Assembly: GCA_045645785.1 (NCBI GenBank)
Contig: JAZRJN010000043.1
Coordinates: 1 to 47,011, forward strand
DNA from: Candidatus Aphodosoma sp.
GTDB taxonomy: Bacteria > Bacteroidota > Bacteroidia > Bacteroidales > Paludibacteraceae
DNA length: 47,011 nt
Direction of reading: 5' to 3'
A program made the translations under genes and the position numbers. The notes under the pieces are model-generated. The model was not told the origin of the DNA. It saw nothing but the letters and a program-made list of their open reading frames with translations, and did not search any database. Shown here piece by piece: positions 1 to 46,576 of the stretch (positions are counted from its first letter, which is position 1; each line of letters starts with the position of its first letter).

Positions 1-2028
1 CAAATCAATCATAAAAGTTTGTTCTTTATTTTGTTTAACATCGAGATACTCAACAAATATGGCGCGATTTGCATTGTTAGCTTTAACTGAAATAGTTACA
101 TTATCAAACAATGCTTCGTTTGGATTAAATGTAAACGCTACCTTTTTAGGCAAACTATACAAACGTAAATTTGATACTAATTGAATATATGGAGCACGAG
201 CAGATGTATATGAAAATGTCAATTTTGCATTACCTTCGCTTGTAGCAGGTTGCAACGTTGCATTCCATTTAGTTGATGAACTTTTTACCTTCCAATCCCC
301 AACATCATTCAACACAGAAGTAATCACATCACTTTTAGGTATCTCTACAATAACTTTTAGAGTATCCCTAAAAGAACCTAACTCACCAACTACAAATGTT
401 TCGCCACAAGCAATACCACACAAGACACCTTCTTCGACACTACAAATTGTTGGATCATCAACATACCAAGTCAAAGCTTGAGGTTGCACCAATTGAGCAT
501 TCACACCTATTACGGCTTGCACCTCAATAGGGTACTCAAACTCATTATCAATTACAACAGAATCAAGACGCATAGCAATTTTTGCATCATCATTTTTAAT
601 AATACGCACTTGTGTTGTTGCACCATTATAAGATATGGTAAGATACCCCTCTTCTGTACCAGATGCTACAAACAGACCATCTTCGATATGTCCCACTATC
701 GGGTCACAAGATAGTTCGAAACCAGTAACATCAGTATTCAACAATGCACCATATTGGTTATAACCTAAAACATGAGGTACGTATGTTCCGTAAGTAGGCA
801 ATTTAACATGAGCAATATTTGCCGAAATAGCAGCTATAGTATTATCCTCAGGAGCATTATTAACGACAAACATACCATTAGAAACAGCACGTTCCGTACC
901 ATCACTACATTGATTCATTGGCCCAAAAGGATCGATATATATAGATGAAGAACCACCTCCATCAAGATTTATAGCAGTATAAGCACCTGCTGATTGCATA
1001 ATTTCGGCAAGCACTTTTGTAGTACAACCAATAGAGGCTACACGACCATCAACTACGCAATAAATCACAGTATCACCGGTTTGACTAAATCCCCAACCTG
1101 TACGTGGATGCAATTCGTCCCACACTTCATTTGTTTCTACTACTCCATCTTTAAGCATCAAAGCACGAGTATCACCACCAACACAATTGGTGATAGCGAT
1201 TTCTTCGCCATTCATTGTTGTATTAAGAGTCAACACAATAGTATCGCCTACGGCAATAGCATCAAGAGCATCAGCCATTGTGCCATGACCTGAAAGAACT
1301 GCTCCATTTTCAGGGATAGCAACTCCAACTTGGCGATAACGACATTCAGTTGCAACTACTTTTATTTCTTTATTCATACCCCACTCTTCACCTTCGACAA
1401 GGGCAATAACTACCTCTGTACCATATTGATTAGTACGAGTATATTTACCTTGTAAATGATTATAAAGAACTAATTCGTTTTCAAGACGATTATAGTTGAC
1501 ATGATTGATATTCAATGCAACACCTTTATGAGTAGCCGTGCCATTGAAACTGAATTGACCTGCGTAAGGAGTACCATCTGCTGAATAAGCAGCCACAGGG
1601 CGACCATTATTAGGTGTATAAGCCAATTGTTTATCAACAACACATGCAGCAGTAGGCAATCCCACATCGCCAGATGTTACATAAAAGTCACCATTATGAC
1701 CCGAGAAAAGATGATGACCAGGAGAACTATGGCGTTTTGCCACTTTAGAAATCACCTCACCACCTAAAATAGAATCACGACCAACATGAGCCTCAAAAGA
1801 TATATATTCATTCGTACGATCGACAATTGTTTGATATACATAAAGCAATTTGCCATCCGCACGTGTCATAGTCATAGCAATATATTTGGTACTTGGACCA
1901 ATTGGATAAACCGCAGTTGTATCGACACGATGCGATTTACCTCCCAACACAATATTATCAACAGCGAATAAATCAATGCACAATACACAATGCACAATGC
2001 ACAATAGAATAGTTAGTTTTGTTTTCAT
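1..2028 (-). CDS. Phosphodiester glycosidase family protein (NAGPA-like / DUF2233), secreted; C-terminus lies beyond the window start
   Basis: Absent from the ORF track because it has no stop inside the window. Minus strand from ATG (plus 2028-2026) reads MKTKLTILLCIVHCVLCIDLFAVDNIVLGGKSHRVD... and stays open for 676 codons to base 1. Contains GAYTAINLDGGGSSSIY (plus ~940-990), the NLDGGGS signature I associate with the phosphodiester glycosidase family. N-terminal signal peptide. Confidence 0.8.
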   Translation of the reverse strand, partial: MKTKLTILLCIVHCVLCIDLFAVDNIVLGGKSHRVDTTAVYPIGPSTKYIAMTMTRADGKLLYVYQTIVDRTNEYISFEAHVGRDSILGGEVISKVAKRHSSPGHHLFSGHNGDFYVTSGDVGLPTAACVVDKQLAYTPNNGRPVAAYSADGTPYAGQFSFNGTATHKGVALNINHVNYNRLENELVLYNHLQGKYTRTNQYGTEVVIALVEGEEWGMNKEIKVVATECRYRQVGVAIPENGAVLSGHGTMADALDAIAVGDTIVLTLNTTMNGEEIAITNCVGGDTRALMLKDGVVETNEVWDELHPRTGWGFSQTGDTVIYCVVDGRVASIGCTTKVLAEIMQSAGAYTAINLDGGGSSSIYIDPFGPMNQCSDGTERAVSNGMFVVNNAPEDNTIAAISANIAHVKLPTYGTYVPHVLGYNQYGALLNTDVTGFELSCDPIVGHIEDGLFVASGTEEGYLTISYNGATTQVRIIKNDDAKIAMRLDSVVIDNEFEYPIEVQAVIGVNAQLVQPQALTWYVDDPTICSVEEGVLCGIACGETFVVGELGSFRDTLKVIVEIPKSDVITSVLNDVGDWKVKSSSTKWNATLQPATSEGNAKLTFSYTSARAPYIQLVSNLRLYSLPKKVAFTFNPNEALFDNVTISVKANNANRAIFVEYLDVKQNKEQTFMIDL
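1974..2007 (+). repeat. Heptad array CAATGCA/CAATACA, about 4.8 units
   Basis: caatgca caataca caatgca caatgca caatag read directly; lies inside the signal-peptide codons (LLCIVHCVLCIDL) of the glycosidase gene. Confidence 0.9.
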
Positions 2029-2078
2029 AATTATTCCGAATGTTTCATTACGCAAAATGCGTAATTGCATTTAACATA

Positions 2079-3886: not shown

Positions 3887-6676
3887 TTATTTTTGAAACT
3901 TCAAAATTTCAAAAGATGTTTTATAACATATTTTTAAAAAATACATCCCATCAGGCAAGCCACTGACATTTAACATCATAATATTATCAAAATCATTCCA
4001 TTCAGAAATATAATCTCTCATTTTTTGTCCTGAAACTGAATAAACAACAATATCCGTAATATTTTTTAGCCCCAAATCAGAGTAAATCGCAATATTATCA
4101 TCGTCCAAATTCACCACTCTGAAATAATTTTTTTCTACCAACTCTACATTTGTTGCCTTCTCCGACAGAGTAAACATTACAGTATCGCTATAAGACGTAG
4201 AAAGATTATTAGGCATATCAGCCTTTACACGAACATAATAAATTGAATATTTTAAATTTGTAAACTCACATTCAAAGGTATATCCATCTGTTCTCTTAAC
4301 AGTCGTATTTCTACCAGGGAATTTATCAGAAGTTGATAATTCTACCCTGAAACCATTCGCAGGCTGTTCCGCCCATGTAATAATAACCGAATTTTCAGTT
4401 AAAACCACACCATTCAAAGGAGAAGTTATTATTGGCACAGGAATTTCAATATCTTTTGTAACAAATGTCAGAATAGGACTAACAGCTTCTACTTCACCAG
4501 CCACAACAGATACCCTAGCGTAATATGTAGTGCTATATTTCAACAATCCCTCTGGCAATATCAATTTATTACTATTCTGAACACAGCTATAGACTACCTC
4601 TGAATTTCTAAAAGTATTTTTAGAAGCCAATTCAAAAACATATTCAGGAGTTCCAAAATTTGATGCATCATCCCATTCAAATTCAAAAACCAATTCTACA
4701 TCTGCAGCATTATTTTTAGGCGAATTAAAACCAAAGAGTTTTGAAGTAAATTTACGAGCATTGCTCCAATCTGAAAATCCACCTTCTGTTATTGTGCGCA
4801 CACGCCAATAATAAGTTACACCATCTTTAATATTATATAACACAGATGTATTGAATGAAGTTGAATTGAGTGTACGAGTCGTAATAATATCGTCAAAATT
4901 CTCATCCATCGCCAACTGCCATTGATATCTAACCCACGCGCCATCATTTTGCTCCCATTCAAAAAAACAAGGCATCAATACCTCAGCATCATTTAGAGGA
5001 TAAACAAGAACTGGCACATTTGGATTTGCCACAGAACCATTTAATAATGCAGGAGCACTCTCGGCGCCATAACGATTGACTGCAGTAATAGCAAAAGTGT
5101 AACCTTCTGAAAACTCAGTTGGAATTTCATACTTCAAATTATCGAATACCAAATCAATCAAATGTTTTGAAGCATATTTATCTGCACCAGTATAACCATT
5201 AGGAATAGCATAAATAGCCGTACGATATAAAGAAGATTCGTTATTCCAAGTCAACAAATTATCGTTTTTTGTAAAATTCAAAGGTGTTGCTGGTATTGAA
5301 GAGTCTTTCCAATTAATATGAGGTGTTAAAATTTTAGTCGTATAAACACGACGTTTAAGATATTGAACAAAATTTTTTGTCTTAATTGTTTTATTTGTAT
5401 TATATAAAACCGACCCTGGTGCATCATTCAAATCATAAATACGATTATAATTGATTTGAGCACCTATCTCATCTTGTTTAAATGCACGCTTTTGAGGGGT
5501 TAAAGAACGAGACTCCGTATTTGTGTTTATTTGATCTTCTAATGCAACAGCCTCAATATTAGAGTACCCGCGACGTTGTGGTGCAGGAGAAGCAGAACCT
5601 TCAAGCGAAGAAACAGAATGACTCGCATAAAAATGGCGACCAAAACGACTAGAAATTTCAGACCACCAATTCGACAAAATACCAAATGGATAAGCACTTG
5701 TTGTAGTCCAATAAAGCTGAGGTGAAATATAATCTACAGTACCTTGTTCAAGCCATGCAATAGGATCACAATATATCGAAGCATACATATTACCTGTAGC
5801 ACCAACTCCACCAGGCAATGTAAGGCCATGTTTATCTGCAACACTCTGATCAGTAGTCCATGTACCAAAAGGCGAAACGCCAAATTTTACATACGGCTTA
5901 ATTTCTTGAATTGTATCATACACATCTTTAATCATCATATTCACATTTTCACGACGCCAATCTCCAAGATTTTTACCATCAGGACGATATTTATCTTGAG
6001 TTGCTTTATCCAAATCAGTAGGAGTACCTTCGTATGCATAAAAATAATCATCAAACACAATACCATCAACATCATATCGTGTTACAATATCAGCAATAAT
6101 CTCTTGAATACGTTGACGCACCTCAGGAAGTCCAGGATCAAGAATAGTTGTACCACTACCATAATCGAGAATCCAATCGGGATGTTGGACGGCATAATCA
6201 TTTTCAAGTTTACTATATGTATCGGTAGAAGATGAATAACGATAAGGATTGAGCCATGCATGAAGTTCTATTCCACGTTTATGAGCCTCTTGAATAGCAA
6301 ATTCGAGCGGATCATAACCTGGATCACCACCACGCGTACCAGTAAGATATTTACTCCAATTTTCATATTCTGACTTATACATAGCATCACTCATCCCTCT
6401 AACTTGAAAAAAAGCAGCATTCATGTTTGCTTCTTGAAGCGAATCAAGAATTGAGCACAACTGCTTTTGTTGTTTAGTACGATATGATGCCTTTGACTCT
6501 TCCGATGCATTGACAGGAATTTGTGTAGTAGGCCAATCAATACCCCACACAGTAGTAAGCCATGTAGCACGAAATTCACGGTTTTGAGCAACTATATCAG
6601 TACATAATATACAAAGCATAATAGTAGCGAGACACAAGACACGAGACACGAGACTATTGACTTTAATTTTTTCCAT
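3887..6676 (-). CDS. Glycoside-hydrolase-like family 10 (GHL10/DUF187, YngK-like) protein with Ig/FN3-like repeats and T9SS C-terminal domain
   Basis: 929-aa ORF. NREFRATWLTTVWGIDWPT directly after the signal peptide is the N-terminal signature I associate with GHL10 TIM-barrel proteins. The C-terminal third is beta-rich repeats ending ...VVYSVSGQKM...LNVSGLPDGMYFLKICYKTSFEILKFQK (T9SS sorting domain). Confidence 0.8.
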   Translation of the reverse strand: MEKIKVNSLVSRVLCLATIMLCILCTDIVAQNREFRATWLTTVWGIDWPTTQIPVNASEESKASYRTKQQKQLCSILDSLQEANMNAAFFQVRGMSDAMYKSEYENWSKYLTGTRGGDPGYDPLEFAIQEAHKRGIELHAWLNPYRYSSSTDTYSKLENDYAVQHPDWILDYGSGTTILDPGLPEVRQRIQEIIADIVTRYDVDGIVFDDYFYAYEGTPTDLDKATQDKYRPDGKNLGDWRRENVNMMIKDVYDTIQEIKPYVKFGVSPFGTWTTDQSVADKHGLTLPGGVGATGNMYASIYCDPIAWLEQGTVDYISPQLYWTTTSAYPFGILSNWWSEISSRFGRHFYASHSVSSLEGSASPAPQRRGYSNIEAVALEDQINTNTESRSLTPQKRAFKQDEIGAQINYNRIYDLNDAPGSVLYNTNKTIKTKNFVQYLKRRVYTTKILTPHINWKDSSIPATPLNFTKNDNLLTWNNESSLYRTAIYAIPNGYTGADKYASKHLIDLVFDNLKYEIPTEFSEGYTFAITAVNRYGAESAPALLNGSVANPNVPVLVYPLNDAEVLMPCFFEWEQNDGAWVRYQWQLAMDENFDDIITTRTLNSTSFNTSVLYNIKDGVTYYWRVRTITEGGFSDWSNARKFTSKLFGFNSPKNNAADVELVFEFEWDDASNFGTPEYVFELASKNTFRNSEVVYSCVQNSNKLILPEGLLKYSTTYYARVSVVAGEVEAVSPILTFVTKDIEIPVPIITSPLNGVVLTENSVIITWAEQPANGFRVELSTSDKFPGRNTTVKRTDGYTFECEFTNLKYSIYYVRVKADMPNNLSTSYSDTVMFTLSEKATNVELVEKNYFRVVNLDDDNIAIYSDLGLKNITDIVVYSVSGQKMRDYISEWNDFDNIMMLNVSGLPDGMYFLKICYKTSFEILKFQK
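6624..6654 (+). repeat. Heptad array GTAGCGA GACACAA GACACGA GACACGA GAC
   Basis: Read directly; encodes SLVSRVLCLAT at the N-terminus of the GHL10 protein. Confidence 0.85.
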
Positions 6677-11350: not shown

Positions 11351-11400
11351 AGTAGCGAGTAGCGAGTAACGAGATTAGGGGCACTCAGCTTCGCCTCGTT
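11351..11400 (+). repeat. GAGTAGC-class heptad array plus partial-complement S module
   Basis: agtagcg agtagcg agtaacg ag, then attaggggcactcagcttcgcctcgtt. Lies 13 nt upstream of the SusD start and fills the susC-susD gap. Confidence 0.9.
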
Positions 11401-14513: not shown

Positions 14514-14554
14514 AATAGCGAGTAGCGAGTAGCAAAACTCAACTCCTCCTTGTT
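14514..14554 (+). repeat. GAGTAGC-class heptad array plus S-like module
   Basis: aatagcg agtagcg agtagca, then aaactcaactcctccttgtt; lies 14 nt upstream of the SusC start codon. Confidence 0.85.
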
Positions 14555-14593: not shown

Positions 14594-14642
14594 CGACTAT
14601 TGACTGTTGACTATTGACTGTTGACTGTTGACTATTGACTAT
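14594..14642 (+). repeat. Heptad array TTGACTR, 7 units
   Basis: cgactat tgactgt tgactat tgactgt tgactgt tgactat tgactat. The last unit contains the murQ stop codon (TAG on minus, plus 14639-14641). Confidence 0.95.
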
Positions 14643-15464: not shown

Positions 15465-15535
15465 AGTAGCGAGTAGCGAGTAACGAGACCCTCCCCCCCC
15501 TTGTTCCTTTTTCCTTGTTCCCTATTCCTTGTGAT
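15465..15535 (+). repeat. Composite element: GAGTAGC heptads + C-tract + TTGTTCC heptads
   Basis: agtagcg agtagcg agtaacg ag | accctcccccccc | ttgttcc tttttcc ttgttcc ctattcc ttgtgat. It fills the whole gap between the kinase stop (TAG at 15522-15524, inside the array) and the murQ start. Confidence 0.9.
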
Positions 15536-27147: not shown

Positions 27148-27159
27148 TTTGTATATATT

Positions 27160-29196: not shown

Positions 29197-29244
29197 AATT
29201 CATAATGCATAATTCATAATTAGCCATTCGGCACTGTAATAATT
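29194..29244 (+). repeat. CATAATK heptad array x4 plus P module (AGCCATTCGGCACTGTAATAATT)
   Basis: cataatt cataatg cataatt cataatt | agccattcggcactgtaataatt. The first unit is the uvrB start codon (cat at 29194-29196). Confidence 0.9.
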
Positions 29245-30053: not shown

Positions 30054-30060
30054 ATTTTAT

Positions 30061-30087
30061 AATCTATAAAATCTATAGACCACTATA
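30061..30087 (+). repeat. 9-nt array of the TCTATAGA class x3
   Basis: aatctataa aatctatag accactata, lying between the birA start (30053) and the dacB stop (30093). Same unit family as 27112-27147. Confidence 0.8.
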
Positions 30088-30092
30088 AAATT

Positions 30093-32121: not shown

Positions 32122-32172
32122 AGTAGCGAGTAGCAAGTAATGAGTAGCGAGATTTACTCGCTTTGCTCGTTA
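32122..32172 (+). repeat. GAGTAGC-class heptad array x4 plus S module
   Basis: agtagcg agtagca agtaatg agtagcg ag | atttactcgctttgctcgtta. AGCGAG (32146-32151) pairs with CTCGCT (32157-32162). Fills the rpoN-PAP2 gap, 5 nt from the PAP2 start. Confidence 0.9.
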
Positions 32173-34321: not shown

Positions 34322-34365
34322 AGTAGCGAGTAGCGAGTAACAAGACTCACTCGCTTCGCTCGTTT
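34322..34365 (+). repeat. GAGTAGC-class heptad array plus S module
   Basis: agtagcg agtagcg agtaaca ag | actcactcgcttcgctcgtt. GCGAGT pairs with ACTCGC. Fills the SPOR-folE gap, 14 nt from the folE start. Confidence 0.9.
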
Positions 34366-34950
34366 TTAATAAACGTATATCATGCTTGGGACTATATAAG
34401 TCTCGGTTGTAAATTCTGGGAATTCGGCAATAATCCATTGTCGAAGTTCTTGGGCTTTAGCATTAGTTGCACAATTACCTATACGCACTTTCCAAAATGG
34501 AGATGTATAAGTAATATAAATCTCATCTGCTAAATTCGGATGTTTTGACACCAGAATATCTTTTATTTCAAAAGCTCGTTCACGCGCATAAGCACCACGA
34601 TTACTCGAAAATATTTGAATACGAAAACCTTTAGCCTCTTCTGCTTCAGCAGATATTTTTTTCTCTATCGCTAAAAATATTGCCGAATCTTGATATATAT
34701 TTATCACTGCACCAGTCAACGCATCTGGTGCTGTAAGCATATCAAAATAATCTCGAGTAGAAAGTTTTACTTCAACAGAATCTTGTTGAATTAACAAAGA
34801 ATCAGACATTATTGATAAACTATCAACATCTCCATAAAACGCATTGTATTGCATCTCTACCTGTGCACTTAAATCAATGCACAATGCACAAAAAATAGTA
34901 ACGAGTAGCGAGTAAGGAGTAACGAGAGAAAACAGCTTTGTTTTTTTCAT
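34366..34950 (-). CDS. SPOR domain-containing protein
   Basis: 194-aa ORF with signal peptide and a C-terminal SPOR-like segment GFRIQIFSSNRGAYARERAFEIKD...WKVRIGNCATNAKAQELRQ. Confidence 0.8.
   Translation of the reverse strand: MKKTKLFSLVTPYSLLVTIFCALCIDLSAQVEMQYNAFYGDVDSLSIMSDSLLIQQDSVEVKLSTRDYFDMLTAPDALTGAVINIYQDSAIFLAIEKKISAEAEEAKGFRIQIFSSNRGAYARERAFEIKDILVSKHPNLADEIYITYTSPFWKVRIGNCATNAKAQELRQWIIAEFPEFTTETYIVPSMIYVY
34875..34927 (+). repeat. CAATGCA heptads followed by GAGTAAC-class heptads, inside the SPOR gene
   Basis: caatgca caatgca caaaaaa tagtaacg agtagcg agtaagg agtaacg agag; encodes FSLVTPYSLLVTIFCALCIDL, essentially the whole signal-peptide core. Confidence 0.9.
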
Positions 34951-34951: not shown

Positions 34952-36682
34952 TTATATATTATTAATTTTTGAATAATATTTCATAAAACCAACACCCATT
35001 ATATTTTTAATATCCTCATCACAATAACCTCGACGGATAAGTTCCATTGTAATATTTATCAACTCGCTCGAGTCATTACATCCTAATACTCCACCGCCAC
35101 CGTCAAAATCAGAACCTATACCAATGTATTCACTTCCAACCAATTTTACCATATAATCAATATGGTCACAAATTGTATTTATATCCGCTCGGCCATCTTT
35201 AGCGAGAAAATAATTATACAAACAAACATGTATTCGACCGCCGCTCTTTGCCAATTTTACAATCAAATCATCACTCATATTACGAGGATGATCACACAAA
35301 GCCTTGGCTGAAGTATGAGTTGCTATAATAGGTTGTGTACTAAACTCTATTGCTTGTTCTATAGTCGAATCTGCCGCATGCGATACATCCACCATCATAC
35401 CCAAACGATTCATTTCACGAATCACCTCACGTCCAAAATCCGACAATCCACCATGTGTATTGCTGCCTCGTGCCGAATCACACAAATCATTATCGCCATT
35501 ATGACAGAGTGTAATATAACGTACACCCATATCATAAAATTTCTCCACATTACGAATATCGCCAGCGAGGGCAAAGCCATTCTCAAGTCCAAAACAAACA
35601 TTAACCATTTGTGGCTTAATCCCAGAAAGTTGAGTATTAAACCTTACCTTTTCAGGATATTTATCCACCTGCTCACGCAAACGCGTAAATATTTCAACCG
35701 CCACATTATGTGCCTCTTCTGCTTTTTGATTATAATCAGGCGAATCAAGTGGCACTTGTGGCAAATAAGCAACCATAAACGTACACGCCACATCGCCATC
35801 ATTCATCTTCACAAAGTCAACCTTCACTTCATCTGGATTTTGACGCACACCAAGATCAGTTGCCTCAGTCCACACCATTGGTGTATCTGTATGAGTATCA
35901 ACCACTGACGATGTACGATGAATAGCACGAGCACGACGATATACCGAAGCCTCATCCACCAACCAATTAAACAAAGCAGCCTCCTCTGGATGCTCTTTAT
36001 ACAAATTTTCAGGATGCCATTGCACGCCTATCATCTTATAACCTGGAACTTCAATAGCCTCTACAATACTATCAGGAGCAAAACCTACTGCTCTACACGA
36101 TGGAGCAATATTCCTTAGCGACTGATGATGAAACGTATTCACTTCAACAATCTGTCTACCCATCACCTGCGCAATCAACGACCCTGGTGCCAATTCCACC
36201 GCATGAGCCACCTCACTACGAGGCTGATCTCCTTGAGAATGATTCAAAAGTTGTGAGTTTTCAGTCTCGTATCTCATGTCTCGTGTCTTACCCTCTATTT
36301 GGGTATAAATATCTTGATATATATCACCTCCAAACTCAATATTCATAGCCTGCATACCACGACAAATACCCAACATAGGCATACAACGCATACGCGTTAA
36401 ACGTACCAACGCCAAGTCAAACTCATCCCTCAACGCACATGGCTTACCGCTTTGAGGCATCAATTCCTCTCCCCAATATTTTGGGTCAATATCACCACCA
36501 CCAGTCAACAACACACCATCGACCATATCAAGCAAATTATTCAAAATCTGCTCATTATCAGTCACTGGAAATACTACTGGCGTAGCACCTGCATCAATAA
36601 TACACTGCACATACGCAGGCACCAATCTATGCGCCTCTTCCCACCATCCCGAAGAAATACCTATTTTTAATTCATAATTCAT
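34952..36682 (-). CDS. Fusion protein: class I glutamine amidotransferase-like peptidase C26 (gamma-glutamyl hydrolase family) + membrane dipeptidase M19
   Basis: 576-aa ORF. The N-terminal half has MLGICRGMQAMN (C26 nucleophile elbow). The C-terminal half has VVDTHTDTP..., LCHNGDNDL and GIGSDFDG, typical of M19 dipeptidases. Its stop is 1 nt from the SPOR start. Confidence 0.85.
   Translation of the reverse strand: MNYELKIGISSGWWEEAHRLVPAYVQCIIDAGATPVVFPVTDNEQILNNLLDMVDGVLLTGGGDIDPKYWGEELMPQSGKPCALRDEFDLALVRLTRMRCMPMLGICRGMQAMNIEFGGDIYQDIYTQIEGKTRDMRYETENSQLLNHSQGDQPRSEVAHAVELAPGSLIAQVMGRQIVEVNTFHHQSLRNIAPSCRAVGFAPDSIVEAIEVPGYKMIGVQWHPENLYKEHPEEAALFNWLVDEASVYRRARAIHRTSSVVDTHTDTPMVWTEATDLGVRQNPDEVKVDFVKMNDGDVACTFMVAYLPQVPLDSPDYNQKAEEAHNVAVEIFTRLREQVDKYPEKVRFNTQLSGIKPQMVNVCFGLENGFALAGDIRNVEKFYDMGVRYITLCHNGDNDLCDSARGSNTHGGLSDFGREVIREMNRLGMMVDVSHAADSTIEQAIEFSTQPIIATHTSAKALCDHPRNMSDDLIVKLAKSGGRIHVCLYNYFLAKDGRADINTICDHIDYMVKLVGSEYIGIGSDFDGGGGVLGCNDSSELINITMELIRRGYCDEDIKNIMGVGFMKYYSKINNI
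36264..36291 (+). repeat. Heptad array GTCTCGT-class x4 inside the C26-M19 gene
   Basis: gtctcgt atctcat gtctcgt gtcttac; encodes GKTRDMRYET. Its unit is the reverse complement of the GACACGA class at 6631-6654, so it is an opposite-orientation copy of that class. Confidence 0.8.
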
Positions 36683-36737
36683 AATGCATAATTCATAATT
36701 AAAAAATCCTTACTCACTGCACCCTATTCTTTGTTCC
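36671..36737 (+). repeat. Composite: CATAATK heptads x4 + S-like module + TTGTTCC heptads
   Basis: ttcataa ttcataa tgcataa ttcataa tt | aaaaaatccttactcactgcaccc | tattct ttgttcc. It contains the C26-M19 start codon (36680-36682) and abuts the ABC permease stop (36738). Confidence 0.9.
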
Positions 36738-38084
<1,347 letters not shown>

Positions 38085-39591: not shown

Positions 39592-39596
39592 AATAT

Positions 39597-39631
39597 AATG
39601 GTTAGAGGTTAATGGTTAGAGATTAGAGTAG
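39597..39631 (+). repeat. Period-7 array AATGGTT AGAGGTT AATGGTT AGAGATT AGAGTAG
   Basis: Read directly. It spans the cls-ribD gap and the last 7 codons plus the stop of ribD (TLISNH-stop). Confidence 0.85.
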
Positions 39632-40646
39632 GAGCTTTAACACCTTTTGCATCTGGATTAACTCCAAGTTTCACAGAATTCGGTCCTTTCTCAATACGTG
39701 CCTCATCCCACAAACCAGAATCAATCACTGTCTGCAACCACTTAGCTCCCCCCTCAATTATTATTGATAAAATGTTTCGTTTCGCCAATTCTTTCAAAAT
39801 AGTCTCCACAATCTTATCATCAAAATCAATCCCCACATACTCAACATTCTCTCGCATCAACCGTTGATTGTTGACTGTTGATTGTTGACTATAAAACACT
39901 ATAGTTTTCGCCGCCGAATCAAAAATCCTATAATCCGCCGGCACACGCAAAGTCCTATCCAACAACACACGTACAGGATTTTTACCAGCCCATTTAGTTA
40001 CAGTCAAATGAGGGTCATCAAGCAAAGCCGTATTCGTAGCCACCATAATAGCATCCTCCTCCACACGCACTTGATGATTCAAAGTCTTTGTAACAGAGTT
40101 GCTTATCCTTATAGGACCATTACCCTTTTCCGTACGACACACATCAATTATACCATCCTCAGTTTCAGCCCATTTCAATATCACATACGGACGATGCTTC
40201 TCTTGCACCGCCATAAACCTACGATTAAGCCAACGAGCCTCCTCTTCCAACACACCCACAGTTACCTCAATACCAGCATCTTGAAGAATTTTCACGCCAC
40301 GACCAGCCACCTTCGGATTAGGGTCAAGCGTAGCAATCACCACTCGTTTCAACCCCTTACGCACAATCAAATCAGCACAAGGCGGAGTTTTTCCCCAATG
40401 CGAACAAGGCTCAAGCGACACATACATCGTAGCCTCTTTCAATAGCGATTCATCTCTAACAGAAGTAATTGCATTAGGCTCAGCATGTGGCTCTCCTGCA
40501 CGATGATGATACCCTTCTCCTATAATCTTACCATCATACACAATCACAGCCCCCACCATAGGATTAGGCGACGTTTGCCCCTCAGCCATAGCAGCCAACT
40601 GCAAACACCGCATCATATACAATTCATCTTGCTTTTTATCCATCAT
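39609..40646 (-). CDS. ribD: Bifunctional diaminohydroxyphosphoribosylaminopyrimidine deaminase / 5-amino-6-(5-phosphoribosylamino)uracil reductase
   Basis: 345-aa ORF with CDA zinc motifs HAEPNAI and EPCSHWGKTPPC, plus a C-terminal RibD reductase domain. Confidence 0.95.
   Translation of the reverse strand: MMDKKQDELYMMRCLQLAAMAEGQTSPNPMVGAVIVYDGKIIGEGYHHRAGEPHAEPNAITSVRDESLLKEATMYVSLEPCSHWGKTPPCADLIVRKGLKRVVIATLDPNPKVAGRGVKILQDAGIEVTVGVLEEEARWLNRRFMAVQEKHRPYVILKWAETEDGIIDVCRTEKGNGPIRISNSVTKTLNHQVRVEEDAIMVATNTALLDDPHLTVTKWAGKNPVRVLLDRTLRVPADYRIFDSAAKTIVFYSQQSTVNNQRLMRENVEYVGIDFDDKIVETILKELAKRNILSIIIEGGAKWLQTVIDSGLWDEARIEKGPNSVKLGVNPDAKGVKAPTLISNH
39863..39893 (+). repeat. Heptad array GTTGATT/GTTGACT x4 inside ribD
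   Basis: gttgatt gttgact gttgatt gttgact ata; encodes YSQQSTVNNQR in the reductase domain. Same class as the TTGACTR array at 14594-14642. Confidence 0.9.
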
Positions 40647-40914: not shown

Positions 40915-40949
40915 AATTAAGAATTAAGAGTTGAGAATTGAAAACTAAA
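40915..40949 (+). repeat. Heptad array AATTAAG AATTAAG AGTTGAG AATTGAA AACTAAA
   Basis: It starts at the base next to the xseB start codon and fills most of the xseA-xseB gap. Confidence 0.85.
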
Positions 40950-40991: not shown

Positions 40992-42431
40992 TCATTTAAC
41001 TATACTATCAATGGTGCCATCAGCAAGGGTGGTAGTGATGATTTCGCCGGGTTGGAGTTGGGTAATGGAGGTTATGAGTTTGCCTTTATGAGTGGTGTAG
41101 GAGTAGCCTTTCTTGAGTAGTTGTTGCGGGTCAAGAAGTTGAAGTTTGGTTTCAAGCAGTGTTAGACGAGATTGTTGTGATTGCAAAAGGCTATTTACAG
41201 CAACAGCAAGCTGAGTGTTTTTTTGGTCGAGATATGTGCGATTTTTTACGATTAAATCGGCTGTTTTTAGTTGTAACCGATGTTGTAAGTCGGTAAGATG
41301 ATTTGCGGAGTGAGTAAGCGTGCGTTGAACAGATTGTGGTAATCGAGTAGAAAGTAACAATAAATAATTTTTCTCTTGCTCTATACGATGAATGACTGAA
41401 TTTTGCATTTTTTCTGCCATTTCATCGAGAAAATTCAATACTTCAAGTGATGACGATATAATAAATTCAGCCACTGCAGTTGGTGTTTTAAGAGCTGTAT
41501 GCGCCACCATATCGAGAATAGTTTCATCGCGATGATGACCTATACCTGCGATTATTGGCAAAGGGAAATTAGCACAACACTCGGCGAGGCGTTCACTATC
41601 GAAGGCTTGAAGGTCGGAAGTTGCTCCGCCACCACGAATAATAACAACAAGTTGAAAGTTGAAAGTTGAAAGTTGAAAGTTATTAACCCCCTCCGCTCTG
41701 CGAGCTCGTCCTCCTAAGACAGAGGGAGAATTTTTTATACCTCCCACAGAAATATTTTTGCTCACGGAACCCACAGAACACACGGAAGTTAATTTCTCGC
41801 TTTGCTCGAAATTTCTTTTAATAATATCAAGGGCAGAGAGGATGCTTTCTTCGGTTTGGGTGCCTTGCATTACGGCAGGGAAAAAAGTTACGGAATATTG
41901 AAAACCGTAAGGATTATTGTTGAGTTGGTGAAGAAAATCGGTATAACCTGCGGCTGTAGGACTTGAAATAACTGCTATACGCTGAATTGGTCGAGGGAGA
42001 GGCAATTGGCTATTTTTACCGATTAAACCGCGCTTTTTTAATCGCTCAATTATCTCAAGACGACGACGTTGAAGTTCGCCAAGAGTATAAGTTGGATCGA
42101 TATCTCTAACATTAAGACTAAGTCCATAAAGTTCATGAAACTCAACCGACACTTCGACAAGAATTTTCATCCCCACTTGGAAAGTAGAATTAGTAGCCGA
42201 TTGAAACTTTTGAAGCAAAAATCGATAAGTTGATGCCCAGATTGTTGCTCGCTGTTTGGCAATGATTTGGTCAGAATCGGGATGTTTCTCTATCAAATCT
42301 AAATAGCAATGACCTGAGTAGTTAGTCGAAATACTATTAATTTCAGCACGTACCCATAACGTTGTGGGAATCACCATGTGAAGTGATTCCTTGATTGTTT
42401 GATTTAGTCGATAGAGAGATAGAGAGTTCAT
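40992..42431 (-). CDS. xseA: Exodeoxyribonuclease VII large subunit (carries a repeat-derived insertion of about 50 aa)
   Basis: The track ORF starts at a GTG (42557) with a non-homologous-looking extension. The ATG at 42431 gives MNSLSLYRLNQTIKESL..., the usual XseA start (OB fold). Catalytic-domain motif IIRGGGATSDLQAFD and a long C-terminal coiled coil are present. Confidence 0.9.
   Translation of the reverse strand: MNSLSLYRLNQTIKESLHMVIPTTLWVRAEINSISTNYSGHCYLDLIEKHPDSDQIIAKQRATIWASTYRFLLQKFQSATNSTFQVGMKILVEVSVEFHELYGLSLNVRDIDPTYTLGELQRRRLEIIERLKKRGLIGKNSQLPLPRPIQRIAVISSPTAAGYTDFLHQLNNNPYGFQYSVTFFPAVMQGTQTEESILSALDIIKRNFEQSEKLTSVCSVGSVSKNISVGGIKNSPSVLGGRARRAEGVNNFQLSTFNFQLVVIIRGGGATSDLQAFDSERLAECCANFPLPIIAGIGHHRDETILDMVAHTALKTPTAVAEFIISSSLEVLNFLDEMAEKMQNSVIHRIEQEKNYLLLLSTRLPQSVQRTLTHSANHLTDLQHRLQLKTADLIVKNRTYLDQKNTQLAVAVNSLLQSQQSRLTLLETKLQLLDPQQLLKKGYSYTTHKGKLITSITQLQPGEIITTTLADGTIDSIVK
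41650..41808 (+). repeat. 159-nt mosaic element inside xseA: AGTTGAA x4 + C-tract + hairpin + CACGGAA-like units + S-like module
   Basis: agttgaa x4 agttatt | aaccccctcc | gctctgcgagctcgtcctcctaagacagagggag | ...ctcacggaacccacagaacacacggaag | ttaatttctcgctttgctcg. Every module recurs in intergenic copies elsewhere in the window. Confidence 0.9.
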
Positions 42432-42712
42432 TTTTTCTACGTTACTTTTGTCATTGCGCAAAAGTAACCAAAACGCTAGTGCTGTGCTTAAAAATGCTAA
42501 AGGATAGCAATAAATCCTATAGCGATTAAAACTCGGACAAACAAACTGCTTCTTCACAATTCAATACTTGCCCATAAATCTCATGCCTCGTTCATCGCCA
42601 ATATAACCTCGCCAAAAATCGCTACTTAACGGATTTATTACTACCCTTTTAATCGCATTTTTAAGACAAGGCACGATTACCATTCGGCATTATCCTTATT
42701 GTTATAAAAAAT

Positions 42713-43858
42713 TTATAATAGTATTGCACCGCCGAGGACGTCGGTATAGTTGTCGCCACAATAGAAAACTACGCTTTGTCCAGGGGTGATGGATTCGATG
42801 TCGTTTTCAAAGACAATTCTTACCAATGAGGAATGAGGAATGAGGAATGAGGAATTATCACCCCCCTCCACATTCGCTTGCGGACGCTTGAGCCGGGCGT
42901 CCCTACTTGGAAATTCGGATGCATCGACATGATAGAGGTGGGCAAGACCGGGACAGGATTTGTAGCGGACTTTTGCCATCACGGTTTGTCCGTCGATGAA
43001 ATCGGAGAATTTCATCATATTTAGGTCGTAAGCATAGCAAGTTTTTATGAGCAAATCCTCCTTACGACCGAGTACAACTTGATTCTTTTGAGCATCGATA
43101 CGAACAACATACATTGGTTCGCCAAGTGCAATGCCAAGACCTTTACGCTGACCTATAGTGTAGTTTGGGAAACCTTGATGTTTGCCCAAAACCTTACCAT
43201 TTATATCGATAAAATCGCCTTTTTTGTACTTTTTATCATAGTCAGGCACATTGGCACGAAGGAAATTGCGATAATCGTTGTCAGGGATAAAACAAATCTC
43301 TTGACTTTCGCCTTTCTTAGATAATTGTTCATAACCATTATCAAGCGCGATTTGGCGCACTTCAGTTTTAGTATATCCACCAAGAGGGAAAAGTGTACGA
43401 GAAAGATTCTCTTGAGTCAAACGCCAGAGGAAATAGGATTGATCCTTGTGCTCGTCGGCTCCTTTACGAATGAAATATCGACCTTCTGGTGTCTTCTCGA
43501 TTTGAGCATAATGACCTGTTGCAATATAAAAACAGCCCAATTCATCGGCAAATTTCTGCAACATACCCCACTTAATATTAGAATTGCACTGCACACAAGG
43601 ATTAGGCGTGCGACCATGAAGATATTCGTCGATGAAATTGCAGATAACAGAATCATGAAACTCACGACGCATATCGAGAGTGTGATGCTCAAAACCCATA
43701 TCTGCAGCCATCTGACGAGCATCAGATACAGCAGGAGAATCGAGAGTTAACTGAGTGAAAGTTACACCTTTAAGTTCGTAACCTTTGCGACGGAGTTCGA
43801 TGGCAGCAACGGAACTATCGATGCCACCACTCATAGCCATAAGTATTTTATTTTTCAT
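42713..43858 (-). CDS. mnmA: tRNA 2-thiouridine(34) synthase (carries a repeat-derived insertion of about 30 aa)
   Basis: 381-aa ORF with PP-loop AMSGGIDSSVAA, conserved CVQCN, and C-terminal ...ITPGQSVVFY. Confidence 0.95.
   Translation of the reverse strand: MKNKILMAMSGGIDSSVAAIELRRKGYELKGVTFTQLTLDSPAVSDARQMAADMGFEHHTLDMRREFHDSVICNFIDEYLHGRTPNPCVQCNSNIKWGMLQKFADELGCFYIATGHYAQIEKTPEGRYFIRKGADEHKDQSYFLWRLTQENLSRTLFPLGGYTKTEVRQIALDNGYEQLSKKGESQEICFIPDNDYRNFLRANVPDYDKKYKKGDFIDINGKVLGKHQGFPNYTIGQRKGLGIALGEPMYVVRIDAQKNQVVLGRKEDLLIKTCYAYDLNMMKFSDFIDGQTVMAKVRYKSCPGLAHLYHVDASEFPSRDARLKRPQANVEGGDNSSFLIPHSSLVRIVFENDIESITPGQSVVFYCGDNYTDVLGGAILL
42825..42912 (+). repeat. 88-nt mosaic element inside mnmA: AATGAGG x4 + C-tract + GC hairpin
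   Basis: aatgagg x4 aattatc | acccccctcc | acattcgctt GCGGACGC ttgagccgg GCGTCC ctacttgg; encodes PSRDARLKRPQANVEGGDNSSFLIPHSS. Confidence 0.9.
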
Positions 43859-43872: not shown

Positions 43873-43955
43873 AGTAGTGAGTAACAAGTAGCAAAATTAC
43901 CATTCGGAATTGTAATTTTTCTCACGGATATTCTGAAACACTTCGCTTTACAGAA
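43873..43955 (+). repeat. Mosaic element in the mnmA leader: GAGTAGC-class heptads + P module + CACGGA/S-like modules
   Basis: agtagtg agtaaca agtagca | ttaccattcggaattgtaattttt | ctcacggatattctgaaacacttcgctttacag; starts 15 nt upstream of the mnmA ATG. Confidence 0.85.
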
Positions 43956-44210: not shown

Positions 44211-46310
44211 ATGAAAAAATTATTTTTAACAGTAGCAACAGCAGCTATGATGTTTGCATGTACAAACAATGCGGGTAAAAATCCGTTTTTGACAGAATGG
44301 AACACTCCAGAAGGTGTACCTCCATTTGAACAAATCAAAGCAGAGCACTATTTGCCTGCATTTGAAGAGGGTATCAAACAACAACAAGCCGAAATTGAGG
44401 CAATTATCAACAATCCAGAGGCTCCAACATTCGAGAATACTCTTGAGGCAATGGATAAATCTGGTCGTTTGTTGTCGAAAGTGGCTTTGGTATTCTTCAA
44501 TATCACAGAAAGCGATGGTTCTGAAGAATTAACTAAAGTTCAAGAAGTTGTATTGCCATTGGTAAGCGCACATAGCGACAATATCTACATGGACGCACGT
44601 TTGTTTGAACGCGTGAAAGCTGTGTATGAAGGTCGTGACGCAATGAACTACACAGTAGAACAAAATCGTTTGTTAGACAAAGTTTACAATGCATTCGTTC
44701 GCAACGGTATCTCATTGCCAGAAGATAAACAAGCACGTATGCGTGAAATCAATGCTGAACTTTCGACATTGCAACAAAAATTCGGCAACAATTTGTTGGC
44801 AGAAACAAATGCTTTCAAACTTGTGCTTGAATCGGAAGAAGATTTAGCAGGTTTGCCTGAAGCAGTGCGCACAGCAGCAGCTGAAGCAGCAAAAGCTGAA
44901 GGTTTGGAAGGTAAATGGGTGATTGGTTTGCAAAATCCAAGCCGTATTCCTTTCTTGCAATACAGCGAACGCCGCGACTTGCGCGAAAAAGTTTACAAAG
45001 CATACATCGAACGTGGTAACAACGGCAACGAAAACGACAACAAAGAAATCGTGTTGCAAATCATGAAATTGCGTATCGAGAAAGCTAACTTGCTCGGTTT
45101 TGAAACATCGGCAGACTTTATCCTCGACGATACAATGGCTAAAAAATCAGACGTTGTGAACTCATTCTTGCTTGATATCTTCAAAGCTGCTAATGAAAAA
45201 GCAAAAGCAGAATTGGCTGAAATGCAAGCAATTGCAGACCGCGAAGGTAACGGTGTGAAAGTAGAAGCTTGGGACTGGGATTACTACACTGAAAAAGTAC
45301 GTCAAGAAAAATATGCTATGAGCGAAGACGAAATCAAACCATACTTCCAAATGGAAAACGTTCGCGCAGGTATGTTTGCATTGGCTAACCGCCTCTATGG
45401 TTTGAACTTCGAAAAATTGAACGATATGCCATTGTTCAACCCAGAAGCAGAATGCTTTAAAGTGACAGACAAAGATGGCTCTTTGATTGGTATTTTCTAT
45501 ACAGACTACTACCCACGCGCATCAAAACGCGGTGGTGCATGGATGACAAACTTCCGTGAACAATATATCAACGAAGAAGGTAAAGACGTTCGTCCAGTGG
45601 TTATCAATATTGGTAACTTCACAAAACCAACAGCTACTACTCCATCATTGCTCACATTGGATGAAACAGAGACTATGTTCCACGAATTCGGTCACGGCTT
45701 GCACGGTTTGTTGGCAAAAGCTAACTATGTATCTGTAAGCGGTACTAACGTGGCACGCGACTTCGTTGAGTTGCCATCACAAATCATGGAAAACTGGGCA
45801 TTCGAACCAGAAGTGCTTGCAATGTATGCAAAACACTATCAAACAGGCGAATTGATTCCTAATGAAATCATCGAAAAAATTAATGCTTCATCTACATTCA
45901 ATCAAGGATTTATGACTACAGAATTGACTGCAGCAGCTATCCTTGACATGAACTGGCACGACCTCAAATCGATAGAAGGCATCACTGACCCTATCGCATT
46001 TGAAAAAGAGATGATGGACAAAATTGGCTTGATTCCTGAAATCGCTCCTCGTTATCGTACAACTTACTTCAACCACATTTGGGCAGGCGGTTATAGCGCT
46101 GGTTATTATAGCTATTTGTGGGCAGAAGTGTTGGATAAAGATGCTTACGCATTGTTCAAAGAAAAAGGTATCTTCGATCAAGAAACAGCACAAAAATTCC
46201 GCACATTGCTCGAAAAAGGTGGTACTGAAGACCCTATGAAATTGTATCGCGACTTCCGTGGTGCAGAGCCAAATCCAGAGGCTATGCTCATTGGACGCGG
46301 TTTAAAATAG
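44211..46310 (+). CDS. dcp: Peptidyl-dipeptidase Dcp (M3 family zinc metallopeptidase), secreted/lipoprotein
   Basis: 699-aa ORF with signal/lipobox MKKLFLTVATAAMMFAC, zinc motif HEFGHGLH, and M3 family length and architecture. Confidence 0.9.
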   Translation: MKKLFLTVATAAMMFACTNNAGKNPFLTEWNTPEGVPPFEQIKAEHYLPAFEEGIKQQQAEIEAIINNPEAPTFENTLEAMDKSGRLLSKVALVFFNITESDGSEELTKVQEVVLPLVSAHSDNIYMDARLFERVKAVYEGRDAMNYTVEQNRLLDKVYNAFVRNGISLPEDKQARMREINAELSTLQQKFGNNLLAETNAFKLVLESEEDLAGLPEAVRTAAAEAAKAEGLEGKWVIGLQNPSRIPFLQYSERRDLREKVYKAYIERGNNGNENDNKEIVLQIMKLRIEKANLLGFETSADFILDDTMAKKSDVVNSFLLDIFKAANEKAKAELAEMQAIADREGNGVKVEAWDWDYYTEKVRQEKYAMSEDEIKPYFQMENVRAGMFALANRLYGLNFEKLNDMPLFNPEAECFKVTDKDGSLIGIFYTDYYPRASKRGGAWMTNFREQYINEEGKDVRPVVINIGNFTKPTATTPSLLTLDETETMFHEFGHGLHGLLAKANYVSVSGTNVARDFVELPSQIMENWAFEPEVLAMYAKHYQTGELIPNEIIEKINASSTFNQGFMTTELTAAAILDMNWHDLKSIEGITDPIAFEKEMMDKIGLIPEIAPRYRTTYFNHIWAGGYSAGYYSYLWAEVLDKDAYALFKEKGIFDQETAQKFRTLLEKGGTEDPMKLYRDFRGAEPNPEAMLIGRGLK

Positions 46311-46576
46311 TAGCGAGTAGCAAGATAAGAGTAACAAGACTTTACTCGCTCCGCTCGTTTTAGATTTTGATATGCGGACTTGAGTGCTCCGCATATCAAC
46401 AAAATTTTGAAAGTTGAGAGGTTAAAGTACCATTTGGCATTATAAATTCGCACACGGAATACACGGAACTCACGGAAATTTTCACCTCCCATAAACATAA
46501 ATAATACTAATATTTTCCACCTTTCGATTCGCTCTTTTGCTATCGCAAAAATCGCTCTACGGATAACACGGAAGCC
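46309..46576 (+). repeat. 268-nt intergenic region composed almost entirely of concatenated repeat modules
   Basis: The modules in order are: GAGTAGC-class heptads (46309-46338, starting inside the dcp stop codon); S module tttactcgctccgctcgtttt; a 12-bp hairpin; ttgaaag ttgagag gttaaag; P module taccatttggcattataaatt; acacggaat acacggaac tcacggaaa; ttttcacctccc; and acacggaag just before the next ATG. Confidence 0.9.
46367..46399 (+). terminator. Strong stem-loop downstream of dcp (probable terminator)
   Basis: Perfect 12-bp stem TTGATATGCGGA-cttgagtgc-TCCGCATATCAA. Only a weak T-run (caaaatttt) follows. Confidence 0.55.

Follow-up and report, generated by a model that had tools for sequence, protein, structure and literature searches.

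Tandem arrays of heptanucleotide units are a familiar feature of prokaryotic DNA. STRR sequences were reportedly described in cyanobacteria by Mazel et al. in 1990. Heptanucleotides are the most abundant class among the long simple sequence repeats (LSSR) of many prokaryotes, for which polymerase slippage has been proposed (Mrazek 2007, as relayed in PMC4679880 and PMC4692102), and tandem heptamers were the top intergenic repeat across 7,006 genomes, the authors finding no clue to their function (Mori 2019, PMC6344855). TAACTGA arrays are found in Beggiatoaceae, cyanobacteria and five Bacteroidetes, Paludibacter among them; they lie directly upstream of start codons and, within open reading frames (ORFs), take the stop-free orientation (MacGregor 2015, PMC4679880). 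Arrays of GGGAATC, including inverted pairs, vary among Xanthomonas species (Rehm 2015, PMC4692102). Here, the arrays of 7-nt and 9-nt units in a contig of Candidatus Aphodosoma sp. (JAZRJN010000043.1; 47,011 nt) were analysed. The whole of this metagenome-assembled contig is referred to as the window, and coordinates and units are those of its plus strand unless given in sense. The first-pass annotation knew of no mechanistic description of the repeat family. The family is not an undescribed one, heptamer repeats being both published and widespread (PMC4679880, PMC4692102, PMC6344855). The window holds an unusually dense instance of the described heptamer-repeat excess and no new kind of element.

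Read in sense (CAACAGT), the TTGACTG class of the window presumably belongs to the same necklace as the STRR3 unit. Like the STRR and TAACTGA repeats, the window arrays comprise 2-7 heptamers within a few nucleotides of start codons, are stop-free in ORFs and are strain-specific in their presence. By contrast, one unit dominates in the Beggiatoaceae, where related units are scarce (PMC4679880), compared with at least 10 intergrading types in the window, and TAACTGA carries stop codons on its forward strand, whereas the window arrays upstream of genes are stop-free in sense. The GGGAATC and GGGGAYT repeats of Xanthomonas and Nostoc also lie between genes, are flanked by the same genes in related species, vary extensively in length and sequence and form inverted pairs (PMC4692102), but they are G-rich and quadruplex-forming, which the window units are not, save for separate G/C tracts. 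The LSSR share with the window an over-represented 7-nt period, a mostly intergenic position, a presence in many unrelated taxa and variation between close relatives (PMC6344855). They differ in three respects. Strict arrays (defined below) number 2.8 per 10 kb in the window and 6.8 in its relative L081, compared with 0.24 in other Bacteroidota loci, a 10-25-fold difference in density; about half of the window arrays are translated in frame in conserved proteins; and the window intermixes several unit types with other small modules. A weaker period-7 excess is nevertheless present in those other Bacteroidota loci (1.28 Mb), where periods 5-9 gave counts of 15, 16, 31, 14 and 10, respectively.

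The Pfam domains encoded in the window (SusC/SusD, type IX secretion system (T9SS) sorting tails, RpoN, UvrB, XseA and MnmA) place it in the Bacteroidota, NCBI assigns the UvrB and XseA proteins of its relatives to the Paludibacteraceae, and its G+C content is 32-42%. Tandem Repeats Finder (TRF) returned ~26 period-7 arrays of 2.3-7 copies with 70-100% matches, 3-5 period-9 arrays and higher-order periods of 14 and 21. In a strict scan requiring at least three copies at ≥80% identity, with expectations taken from Markov-1 shuffles, 13 period-7 arrays were observed against 0.1 expected, together with 2 period-9 arrays, and no array of period 5, 6, 8 or 10-13 was found in the window. Since the TRF rows fall where the first-pass annotation had placed 7-nt and 9-nt arrays, and the excess over shuffles is large, these arrays are genuine. 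A curated table built from TRF and inspection holds 31 arrays (926 nt, 2.0% of the window) at ~24 loci; the ~1.5 kb claimed earlier is not reached by the arrays alone, but is approached when the other modules, termed S, P, C and G, are added (~1.2-1.4 kb). About 15 arrays lie in coding sequences, where they occupy N-termini, linkers or loops, five run across the start or stop of a gene, and intergenic positions account for about 10. Head-to-tail 7-nt units, period excess, dispersal and variation between relatives thus mark the arrays as heptanucleotide tandem repeats. Module order and content differ from locus to locus, in keeping with the earlier statement that no single element has been copied intact. 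No Rfam family scored above threshold anywhere in the window, and HIP1 (GCGATCGC) has zero copies there, so there is no cyanobacterial signature.

The arrays are best explained, with a probability of roughly 0.55, as STRR/LSSR-type microsatellites with heptanucleotide units (nonanucleotide in a few), born and changed in place by slippage, with occasional ectopic copying and fold-back, under a strong selective filter. In the first step, a native heptamer at a permissive place would be duplicated in tandem, the candidate sources being 7 nt that hold a start or stop codon in a very short spacer, part of a signal peptide, or a surface loop. Whole units are then gained and lost by slipped-strand mispairing, and classes interconvert at a fixed site in a pattern of drift and homogenisation. 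Arrays would occasionally be overwritten by copies from elsewhere. Fold-back template switching may produce partial inverted copies, giving rise to the S arm and to hairpins, and other small modules (module P, a G-tract with hairpin and, in relatives, a 30-nt element) would gather at permissive sites, some of them copied between loci. Only spacer arrays, or in-frame arrays without stops in sense, would survive selection.

Change in unit number is evident among strains of a sister species (L081 and L382-L387), the closest relatives found, whose members are 97.4-100% identical to one another and ~89% identical to the window. Comparison of five strains over 13.2 kb revealed 30 indel regions, ~20 of them in arrays or modules. 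At 97.4-99% identity, strains differ by +7 nt at two junctions and by +14 nt at one; the steps within coding sequences are +21 nt in the ABC-2 permease gene ABC2 (three units, frame kept), +9 nt in the biotin/lipoate ligase gene (BPL) and +27 nt in UvrB. Among UvrB proteins sharing 98% identity or more with that of the window, lengths of 675, 678 and 684 residues occur, corresponding to 0, 1 and 3 extra 9-nt units. Heptamer arrays within genes differ by 21 nt only, and do not vary inside clusters of ≥97% identity. Whole-unit differences of this type are the heterogeneity expected from slipped-strand mispairing, with selection permitting frame-preserving steps in genes, and they bear out the earlier suggestion that the arrays are dynamic.

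Wider comparison covered syntenic loci (L002, L081-L085 and L206-L208) with 76-89% nucleotide identity to the window, the first syntenic genome match being ~80% identical. Relatives carry arrays at the junctions and protein loops of the window, often with another unit or copy number, and nearly every spacer varies among genomes in the presence, unit type or copy number of its array; the array-free gene spacers of relatives measure only 1-20 nt. The gap between the SPOR-like gene and folE, for example, holds TAATCTAAATATG in two genomes, (GGAACAA)n and/or (ATTTTCA)2 in others, and a hairpin of module S and GCTACTC units in the window. The UvrB linker and one XseA loop emerged as hot spots from 65 UvrB and 120 XseA relatives. 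Their variable segments consist of array-derived peptides (SPT..., LNSQLST, NFQLSTF, HSSLLTP), the one XseA loop containing NFQLSTF, HSSLLTP or NSQFSIL arrays in different relatives. At both hot spots the unit type differs by lineage, down to 65% protein identity, which indicates that the sites are old and that their contents turn over. The recent activity proposed at first is thus visible in that close relatives differ at almost every junction, but it does not cover arrays at orthologous sites that reach ~65% protein identity. Judged from these alignments, the history is one of long-lived turnover at fixed permissive sites, extending beyond recent activity. With arrays at almost every junction, and in UvrB, XseA and MnmA as alignment landmarks, this uncultured gut lineage constitutes a dense natural laboratory; many closely related metagenome assemblies exist, dozens of them for the sister species, such that published data suffice to count and date births, steps, turnover, copying and nested insertions. 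Questions of rate and mechanism thereby come within reach.

Many arrays begin in phase with a start or stop codon native to the gene. The native IspA start, ATGAATT, is present as (ATGAATT)4 in L081 and as ATGCATT ATGAATT in the window. In four lineages, four different arrays have the stop of the SIS gene (...AATAG) as their opening unit: (TCAATAG)n, (TCAACGG)n, (TTTAGAG)n and (GGAATAG)n. The ABC2 stop (...AATTAG) runs into (GAATTAG/GAATGAG)n, and the stop of h280 likewise lies within the first array unit. One array of L085 reads GAATGAG, GAATGGG, GAATTGG, GAATGAG, GAATTGT and three times GAATTAT with its phase kept, a gradient that links two of the classes of the first-pass annotation by descent. 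The ~ten separate classes listed there are therefore not discrete: units intergrade within one array, and three classes share the XseA loop.

The selective filter is seen most directly in coding sequences, where every array in the curated table is stop-free in sense, as had been noted. Stops confined to one strand were found in 19 arrays, and in all 19 they lie on the plus strand; the co-orientation reported earlier therefore holds within the window. Nine or ten of these arrays lie inside minus-strand genes, where orientation is forced, and six are GCTACTC arrays (the GAGTAGC class in sense) located 4-15 nt upstream of minus-strand starts. Genes are on the minus strand throughout the window, save at 16.5-19.2 kb and from 44.2 kb on. 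Both orientations are seen for classes without a stop on either strand: in L206, genes of the same direction contain both CAATGCA and its complement (the TGCATTG class), and ATTGTGC occupies a single genomic strand in genes that run in opposite directions. Within the window, the GTCTCGT array at 36264 is indeed the exception it was said to be, since 6628 and 36264 form the only reverse-complement pair. The single gap between plus-strand genes (46311-46573) keeps the genomic orientation, and the orthologous gap of L206 contains an array of opposite sense-strand stop status. Given that nearly all genes are on the minus strand and that in-gene arrays are stop-free in sense, co-orientation is largely a by-product of gene strand and stop avoidance, and the filter would account for most of it. 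The divergent point at 43.9-44.2 kb, considered as a replication origin, has no DnaA-box cluster.

Several observations weigh against birth and change in place as the whole explanation. The array at the M19 start (36669-36701) is identical at 33/33 nt to the UvrB-start array 7.5 kb away, including an ATGCATT variant, and all relatives compared have (AATGAGG)n at the M19 start. Blocks of 53-78 nt, each made of module S and an array, differ from the relatives and are not locally derived. The GAGTAGC class recurs at 8-9 loci in 47 kb in one orientation relative to the downstream ATG, a recurrence for which slippage alone is insufficient. A 52-nt module of hairpin and G-tract is common to different genes, that of the window mnmA being 84.6% identical to one in the xseA insert of L285. 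In a phage contig (L250/L224, IMGVR_UViG_3300026159_000618; 32.7 kb, 58% G+C), eight perfect, identical (TTCTCAA)4-5 arrays lie 0-50 nt upstream of successive ORF starts, all in sense and each after a C-run, which suggests function or copying. A first duplication arising de novo was not among the events directly observed. Finally, the 7-nt preference itself is left unexplained; the one published proposal is an effect of polymerase-contact length on slippage (Mrazek 2007, as cited in PMC4679880 and PMC4692102). A few arrays and hairpin modules have clearly been copied between loci.

The strongest competing explanation, itself doubtful, is that the arrays are parts or by-products of tiny non-autonomous mobile elements, hairpin-plus-array cassettes that insert at junctions and in frame, with a transposase located elsewhere acting in trans. 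The exact 33-nt duplication, the shared 52-nt module and the presence or absence of 53-78-nt blocks between relatives would all fit, as would the companion modules. Module S occurs at 32156, 34349 and 46344 (≤3 mismatches; 0.1 expected), with degenerate copies at 11383 and ~41796, and module P at 29223, 42679, 43899 and 46429, and weakly also at 46858 (0.13 expected). All copies are on the plus strand, at 30-40 times chance expectation, and both modules are thus non-random dispersed one-strand repeats, as the first-pass annotation had it. The proposal that S folds back on the GAGTAGC array applies to two loci, 32122..32171 (ΔG -13.2, z -3.5) and 34322..34364 (ΔG -19.7, z -3.9), of the 6-7 with this arrangement; the RNA of the rest folds no better than shuffles. 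The other two modules fared less well. For C, the copies at 41685 and 42860 match at ≤1 mismatch (0.6 expected), 15488 is only a related C-run and 46484 is unconvincing, which leaves a marginal motif that directly adjoins three arrays. For G, the 12-bp hairpin at 46367-46399 is strong (z -4.6), whereas the copy at 42880, with a 6-bp stem at 42882-42902, is no better than shuffles (z +0.5). The two copies have just ~12 nt in common, and G as a conserved hairpin family was rejected because only one of the two folds significantly. In the window, P and the G-tract adjoin arrays and are not nested within them.

Comparison with described mobile repeats gave partial likenesses only. The S+GAGTAGC structures resemble repetitive extragenic palindromes (REP/REPIN; PMC3116915) in being multicopy, imperfect palindromes of ~50 nt between co-directional genes, in one orientation and with GTAG in the unit. 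They differ in that a tandem array forms one arm, in the heterogeneity of the copies, and in the presence of an S-like sequence inside xseA and of same-class arrays in the SPOR gene; no doublet organisation of the REPIN type was seen in the window, and its copies are not strictly extragenic, near-identical and in inverted doublets. Neither terminal inverted repeats (TIR) nor target-site duplications (TSD), the marks of a miniature inverted-repeat transposable element (MITE), were found at the filled and empty sites compared. Small dispersed repeats (SDR) of 21-27 nt in Nostoc reportedly sit inside heptamer repeats, according to Elhai et al. in 2008 (Genome Res 18:1484). A 30-nt element of the sister species (TTTTATCGCCAAAGGCTCAAAGACCTTCGG) would resemble them in being present or absent and nested in heptamer arrays; it differs in having no significant hairpin and in being often translated in frame, and it is absent from the window. 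The Rickettsia palindromic elements (RPE) of Ogata et al. in 2000 are said to be defined palindromic families of 100-150 bp. Like the window inserts in XseA (+54 residues) and MnmA (~+30), they are in-frame repeats translated in tolerant enzyme loops, but the window inserts are mosaics with only the 52-nt sub-module in common, and no shared 100-150-bp palindromic consensus was found in them.

The 30-nt element deserves separate description. It is present or absent between strains with sharp edges, sits at no fewer than five distinct sites, always nested in TTCTCAA/CTTTCAA arrays, may be written TTTT(A/T)T(C/T)GCCAARGGCTCAAAGACCTTCGG, and encodes F(I/F)AKGSKTFG in the frame of the host gene. 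Copies are found at L382:2392-2421, L081:3575-3604, L285:1108-1137 and L208:11414-11443, and in L157 on the minus strand, near 10876 on its reverse complement. Its candidacy as a hairpin was rejected, the fold not being significant, and the window contains no copy.

For mobile elements, the nested and sharp-edged 30-nt element is a favourable observation, as are the inverted heptamer arrays with hairpins that are common in soil metagenome contigs. However, no TIR or TSD was seen at any filled/empty indel boundary examined, module order and content vary by locus, and the arrays themselves are in register with native codons, grade between classes and step by whole units. Neither the window nor the genes tabulated for the relatives' 10-kb flanks contain a transposase, RAYT or reverse-transcriptase domain. 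Arrays of arbitrary heptamers are moreover equally common elsewhere. While (GAGTAGC)n was found in >120 metagenome contigs, ranging from 30 to 71% G+C, often as inverted array pairs in soil-type contigs, and (TTGAGAA)3 in 61 viral stretches, permuted control heptamer triplets gave 13 and 41 viral stretches compared with 21, 22 and 61 for window classes. The controls being about as common, the phenomenon is general and not bound to particular units, and the idea of special, widely conserved units, based on the >120 metagenome and 61 viral matches, was dropped. Mobility suits the non-array modules better than the arrays.

A little less probable still is that the arrays act in cis as RNA elements under selection at gene junctions. 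Leaders rich in pyrimidines, poor in G and unstructured would aid Shine-Dalgarno-independent initiation through S1 or a cold-shock protein, the latter binding one heptamer per domain, stop-rich arrays would end all three frames, and hairpins would stabilise or terminate transcripts. The same roles have been proposed for TAACTGA repeats, citing the binding of heptamers by CspB (MacGregor 2015, PMC4679880). Consistent with such roles, GCTACTC-type arrays precede six starts at 4-15 nt, always in sense, post-stop arrays hold TAG or TAA in each unit, and a phage of 58% G+C carries eight perfect AT-rich arrays at successive junctions. A long ORF follows viral (TTCTCAA)n at 0-21 nt in 18/57 cases in sense and 8/57 in antisense, compared with 13% for random positions, although several of the viral contigs counted are near-duplicates of one another. 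Among 46 unique metagenome arrays of (GCTACTC)n, no enrichment before ORF starts was observed (6 sense, 7 antisense, control 15%), in an orientation count for which ORF calling is noisy in high-GC contigs; enrichment was confined to positions just downstream of gene ends, on either strand. Against an RNA function, close relatives have array-free orthologous junctions (1-20 nt) and show no evident cost of this, units are interchangeable at one site, about half of the arrays lie within coding regions, and the S+array hairpins are structured. In a compact genome, any intergenic sequence is near a start or stop codon.

Improbable, yet broader in reach, is the idea that the arrays, module P, the G-tract/hairpin and the 30-nt element are together the footprint of one horizontally spread process acting on single-stranded DNA. 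A candidate would be an enzyme of the RAYT/IS200-like or primase/reverse-transcriptase type working at replication forks, seeding and copying hairpin-plus-heptamer cassettes. If true, it would account for one syndrome, heptamer arrays with tiny mobile repeats nested in them, in cyanobacteria, Beggiatoaceae, some Bacteroidota and their phages, for an array density that is patchy among related lineages, varying 10-25-fold, and for the residual strand bias of intergenic arrays.

Far less credible is that the arrays are contingency loci, phase-variable by frameshift or promoter spacing. Unit numbers do vary among strains, and heptanucleotide repeats switch neuO and hmw1A in other bacteria (PMC13001214, PMC8262952), but arrays have only 3-7 units and lie in housekeeping genes (uvrB, xseA, mnmA, ribD). 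Phase variation was rejected on this ground, on the frame-keeping 21-nt changes within genes, invariant at ≥97% identity, and on the likeness of near-identical strains: L382, L383 and L384 are 99.98-100% identical over the first 13.2 kb and have identical arrays. That the arrays are assembly or sequencing artefacts, a suspicion raised by the metagenomic origin of the window and by a relative's contig (L002) that ends within an array, can be dismissed, since independent assemblies give base-identical arrays (L083 and L084, which derive from separate samples and separate assemblers, show a single base difference over 22 kb; L382-L384 likewise agree), in-gene arrays leave frames open, and arrays recur in dozens of independently assembled protein clusters.

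Consequences for individual genes follow from where the arrays lie, and those proposed initially were upheld throughout. Start codons are donated to three genes. The UvrB start is provided by (AATTCAT)4.6 (29190..29240), followed by module P at 29223-29240. The start of M19 is provided by (TAATTCA)4.7, which is accompanied by degenerate TTGTTCC-type units after the ABC2 stop (36668..36735). At 27087..27148, two ATGAATT/ATGCATT units form the IspA start and the 9-nt (CTATAGATT)4 lies in the UvrB-IspA gap. An exact-protein look-up of the M19 peptidase returned no match, probably owing to a mismatch between the start given by the array and the one called.

Stop codons are supplied to SIS and h280. 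A (GACTATT/GACTGTT)7 array with a period-21 superstructure (14595..14643; sense (TCAATAG/TCAACAG)n) starts in register with the SIS stop TAG and provides it. The composite at 15465..15532 consists of (AGTAGCG)3.3 (13 nt before the SIS ATG), a C-run (15488-15500) and (CCTTGTT)4.9, and its first sense unit, GGAATAG, gives the upstream h280 its stop. In both cases (15522-15535 and 14639-14643) it is the opening unit of the array downstream, GGAATAG and AATAG, respectively, that holds the stop, so that array sequence defines the gene ends; C-terminal residue counts of h280 and SIS vary among relatives.

Signal-peptide cores are formed in four proteins. In the first minus-strand gene, (CAATGCA)4.6 (1974..2005) encodes residues 8-18, LLCIVHCVLCI, in frame, and in the GHL10/T9SS protein (CGAGACA)3.9 (6628..6654) covers residues 8-17. 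The signal peptide of the SPOR-like protein contains (CAATGCA)2.4 and (AGTAACG)4.3 (34875..34926), and differs from that of L002 by an in-frame 21 nt (3 units). At the N-terminus of the S13 peptidase, (GAATGAG)4.6 (31399..31430) is in frame at residues 25-35, and the orthologous site of L002 has 3 units of the same class.

In-frame inserts were found in XseA, MnmA, UvrB, BPL, ABC2 and RibD. That of XseA coincides exactly with the composite at 41649..41812, which accounts for 54 residues in excess of the E. coli structure 8txr_A and comprises (AAGTTGA)4.7, a C-tract at 41685-41694, a GC-rich hairpin, CACGGAA-type 9-nt units at 41742-41787 and an S-like module near 41796. XseA is the large subunit of exonuclease VII, and single-strand exonucleases are known to stabilise tandem repeats. 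Its insert lies beside the conserved RGGG motif, a place where almost every member of the Paludibacteraceae carries an array. In MnmA, ~30 extra residues correspond to a composite at 42825..42912 (residues 308-345), made up of (AATGAGG)4.4, a C-tract at 42860-42869 and the short GC hairpin at 42882-42902. The UvrB C-terminal linker contains the 9-nt (TGTCGGACT)4 in frame at 27340..27375 (residues 608-619), and BPL contains 9-nt units of the GTCGGACT family at 29478..29518 (residues 179-192), a site at which L002 is without 39 nt (gaps of 32 and 7). The ABC-2 permease has two such inserts: (AGAGTTG)5.4 at 37168..37205 (residues 294-306), and (ATTGAGA)5.4 beside (TCCCTGC)4.4 in a loop at 37775..37845 (residues 80-104), the latter pair being found at another locus in L002. 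RibD contains (GTTGATT/GTTGACT)4 at 39863..39890 (residues 253-262). The sole reverse-complement array, (GTCTCGT)3.6 (36264..36288), is in frame in the C26-M19 peptidase (residues 132-140). Such arrays create spurious starts, N-terminal extensions, hypothetical repeat peptides and length heterogeneity in the protein clusters of Bacteroidales metagenome-assembled genomes, and annotation pipelines should recognise them.

The remaining arrays lie at or near junctions. Upstream of the SusD ATG, at 12 nt, (AGTAGCG)3.3 is joined by a degenerate S arm at 11383-11400 (11351..11400), and the spacer measures 78 nt in place of the 12-nt spacer of relatives. At SusC, (TAGCGAG)2.6 (14516..14533) precedes the ATG by 15 nt and has a degenerate S-like arm downstream; the array is orthologous in L084 and L085 and absent in L082. 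The h200 ATG is preceded at 4 nt by (AGTAGCG)4.3 with module S at 32156-32171 (32122..32171), and this 53-nt unit is missing in L002, L082, L084 and L085. At the GTP cyclohydrolase gene, (AGTAGCG)2.6 lies 13 nt upstream of the ATG with module S at 34349-34364 (34322..34364), where relatives have an empty 10-12-nt gap or different arrays. The MnmA ATG follows a degenerate (GTAGYRA)3 by 15 nt, with a module P hairpin at 43899-43916 (z -4.4; 43874..43916), and another module P (42679..42696) lies just downstream of the MnmA stop. The S13-BPL gap is filled by TCTATAGA-type 9-nt units (30054..30092), (TAATGGT/AGAGGTT)3.3 (39596..39618) spans the junction of RibD stop and PLD start, and (AATTAAG/AGTTGAG)3.6 (40915..40939) abuts the XseB start codon. 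The module-rich gap between two plus-strand genes (46310..46477) contains, in order, a degenerate GAGTAGC array (46310-46341), S (46344-46359), the 12-bp hairpin (46367-46399), TTGAAAG/TTGAGAG units (46405-46420), P (46429-46446) and the 9-nt (CACACGGAA)3 (46451-46477).

The absence of arrays from 16.4-26.1 kb, as originally described, was confirmed. The 19260-26100 block that follows ispA is a variable island, absent from several relatives, with the lowest G+C of the window (~32%) and zero heptamer arrays. It carries CarboxypepD_reg/T9SS-tail genes in the window, L385 and L386, and its position is taken by a Peptidase_C10 gene set in L382-L384 and L387; in L082-L085 ispA directly abuts nagB and there is no island. 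The arrays are thus confined to resident DNA.

Further observations concern individual proteins. The mechanically called xseA ORF runs 42 codons upstream of the conserved start MNSLSL (42432-42557). This extension (MKKQFVCPSF...) is called in some database entries and not in most relatives, and probably reflects misannotation across the module-rich spacer. The peptide GTRHAVSD(Q/D)P recurs in different proteins of relatives, as an addition or an insertion, at XseA C-termini (P0157, P0163 and others) and in UvrB linkers (P0006, P0181), and probably derives from another small dispersed DNA module translated in frame.

Beyond these genomes, the phage pattern of L250/L224 is shared by the related contigs L235, L245 and L263, and AATCCGCG-type repeats also precede some ATGs in L250/L224. 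Among the soil and marine metagenome contigs (L086-L205; 55-71% G+C), inverted arrays of the form (GCGAATA/GCGAGTA)n ... (TATTCGC/TACTCGC)n make long hairpins that, in high-GC bacteria, lie immediately downstream of where genes end, and GATTGCG/AATCCGC arrays recur in four unrelated loci (L034, L058, L066 and L151). In the long intergenic regions of relatives, a further dispersed repeat of ~40 nt (GGTTGCTTGMAGKTTGCT...) and TACACAATGAGAGTGTGTA hairpins occur in both orientations (L082:682-1094 and 15065-15590, the equivalent positions of L084 and L085, and L002 near 5510), neither of them being prominent in the window.

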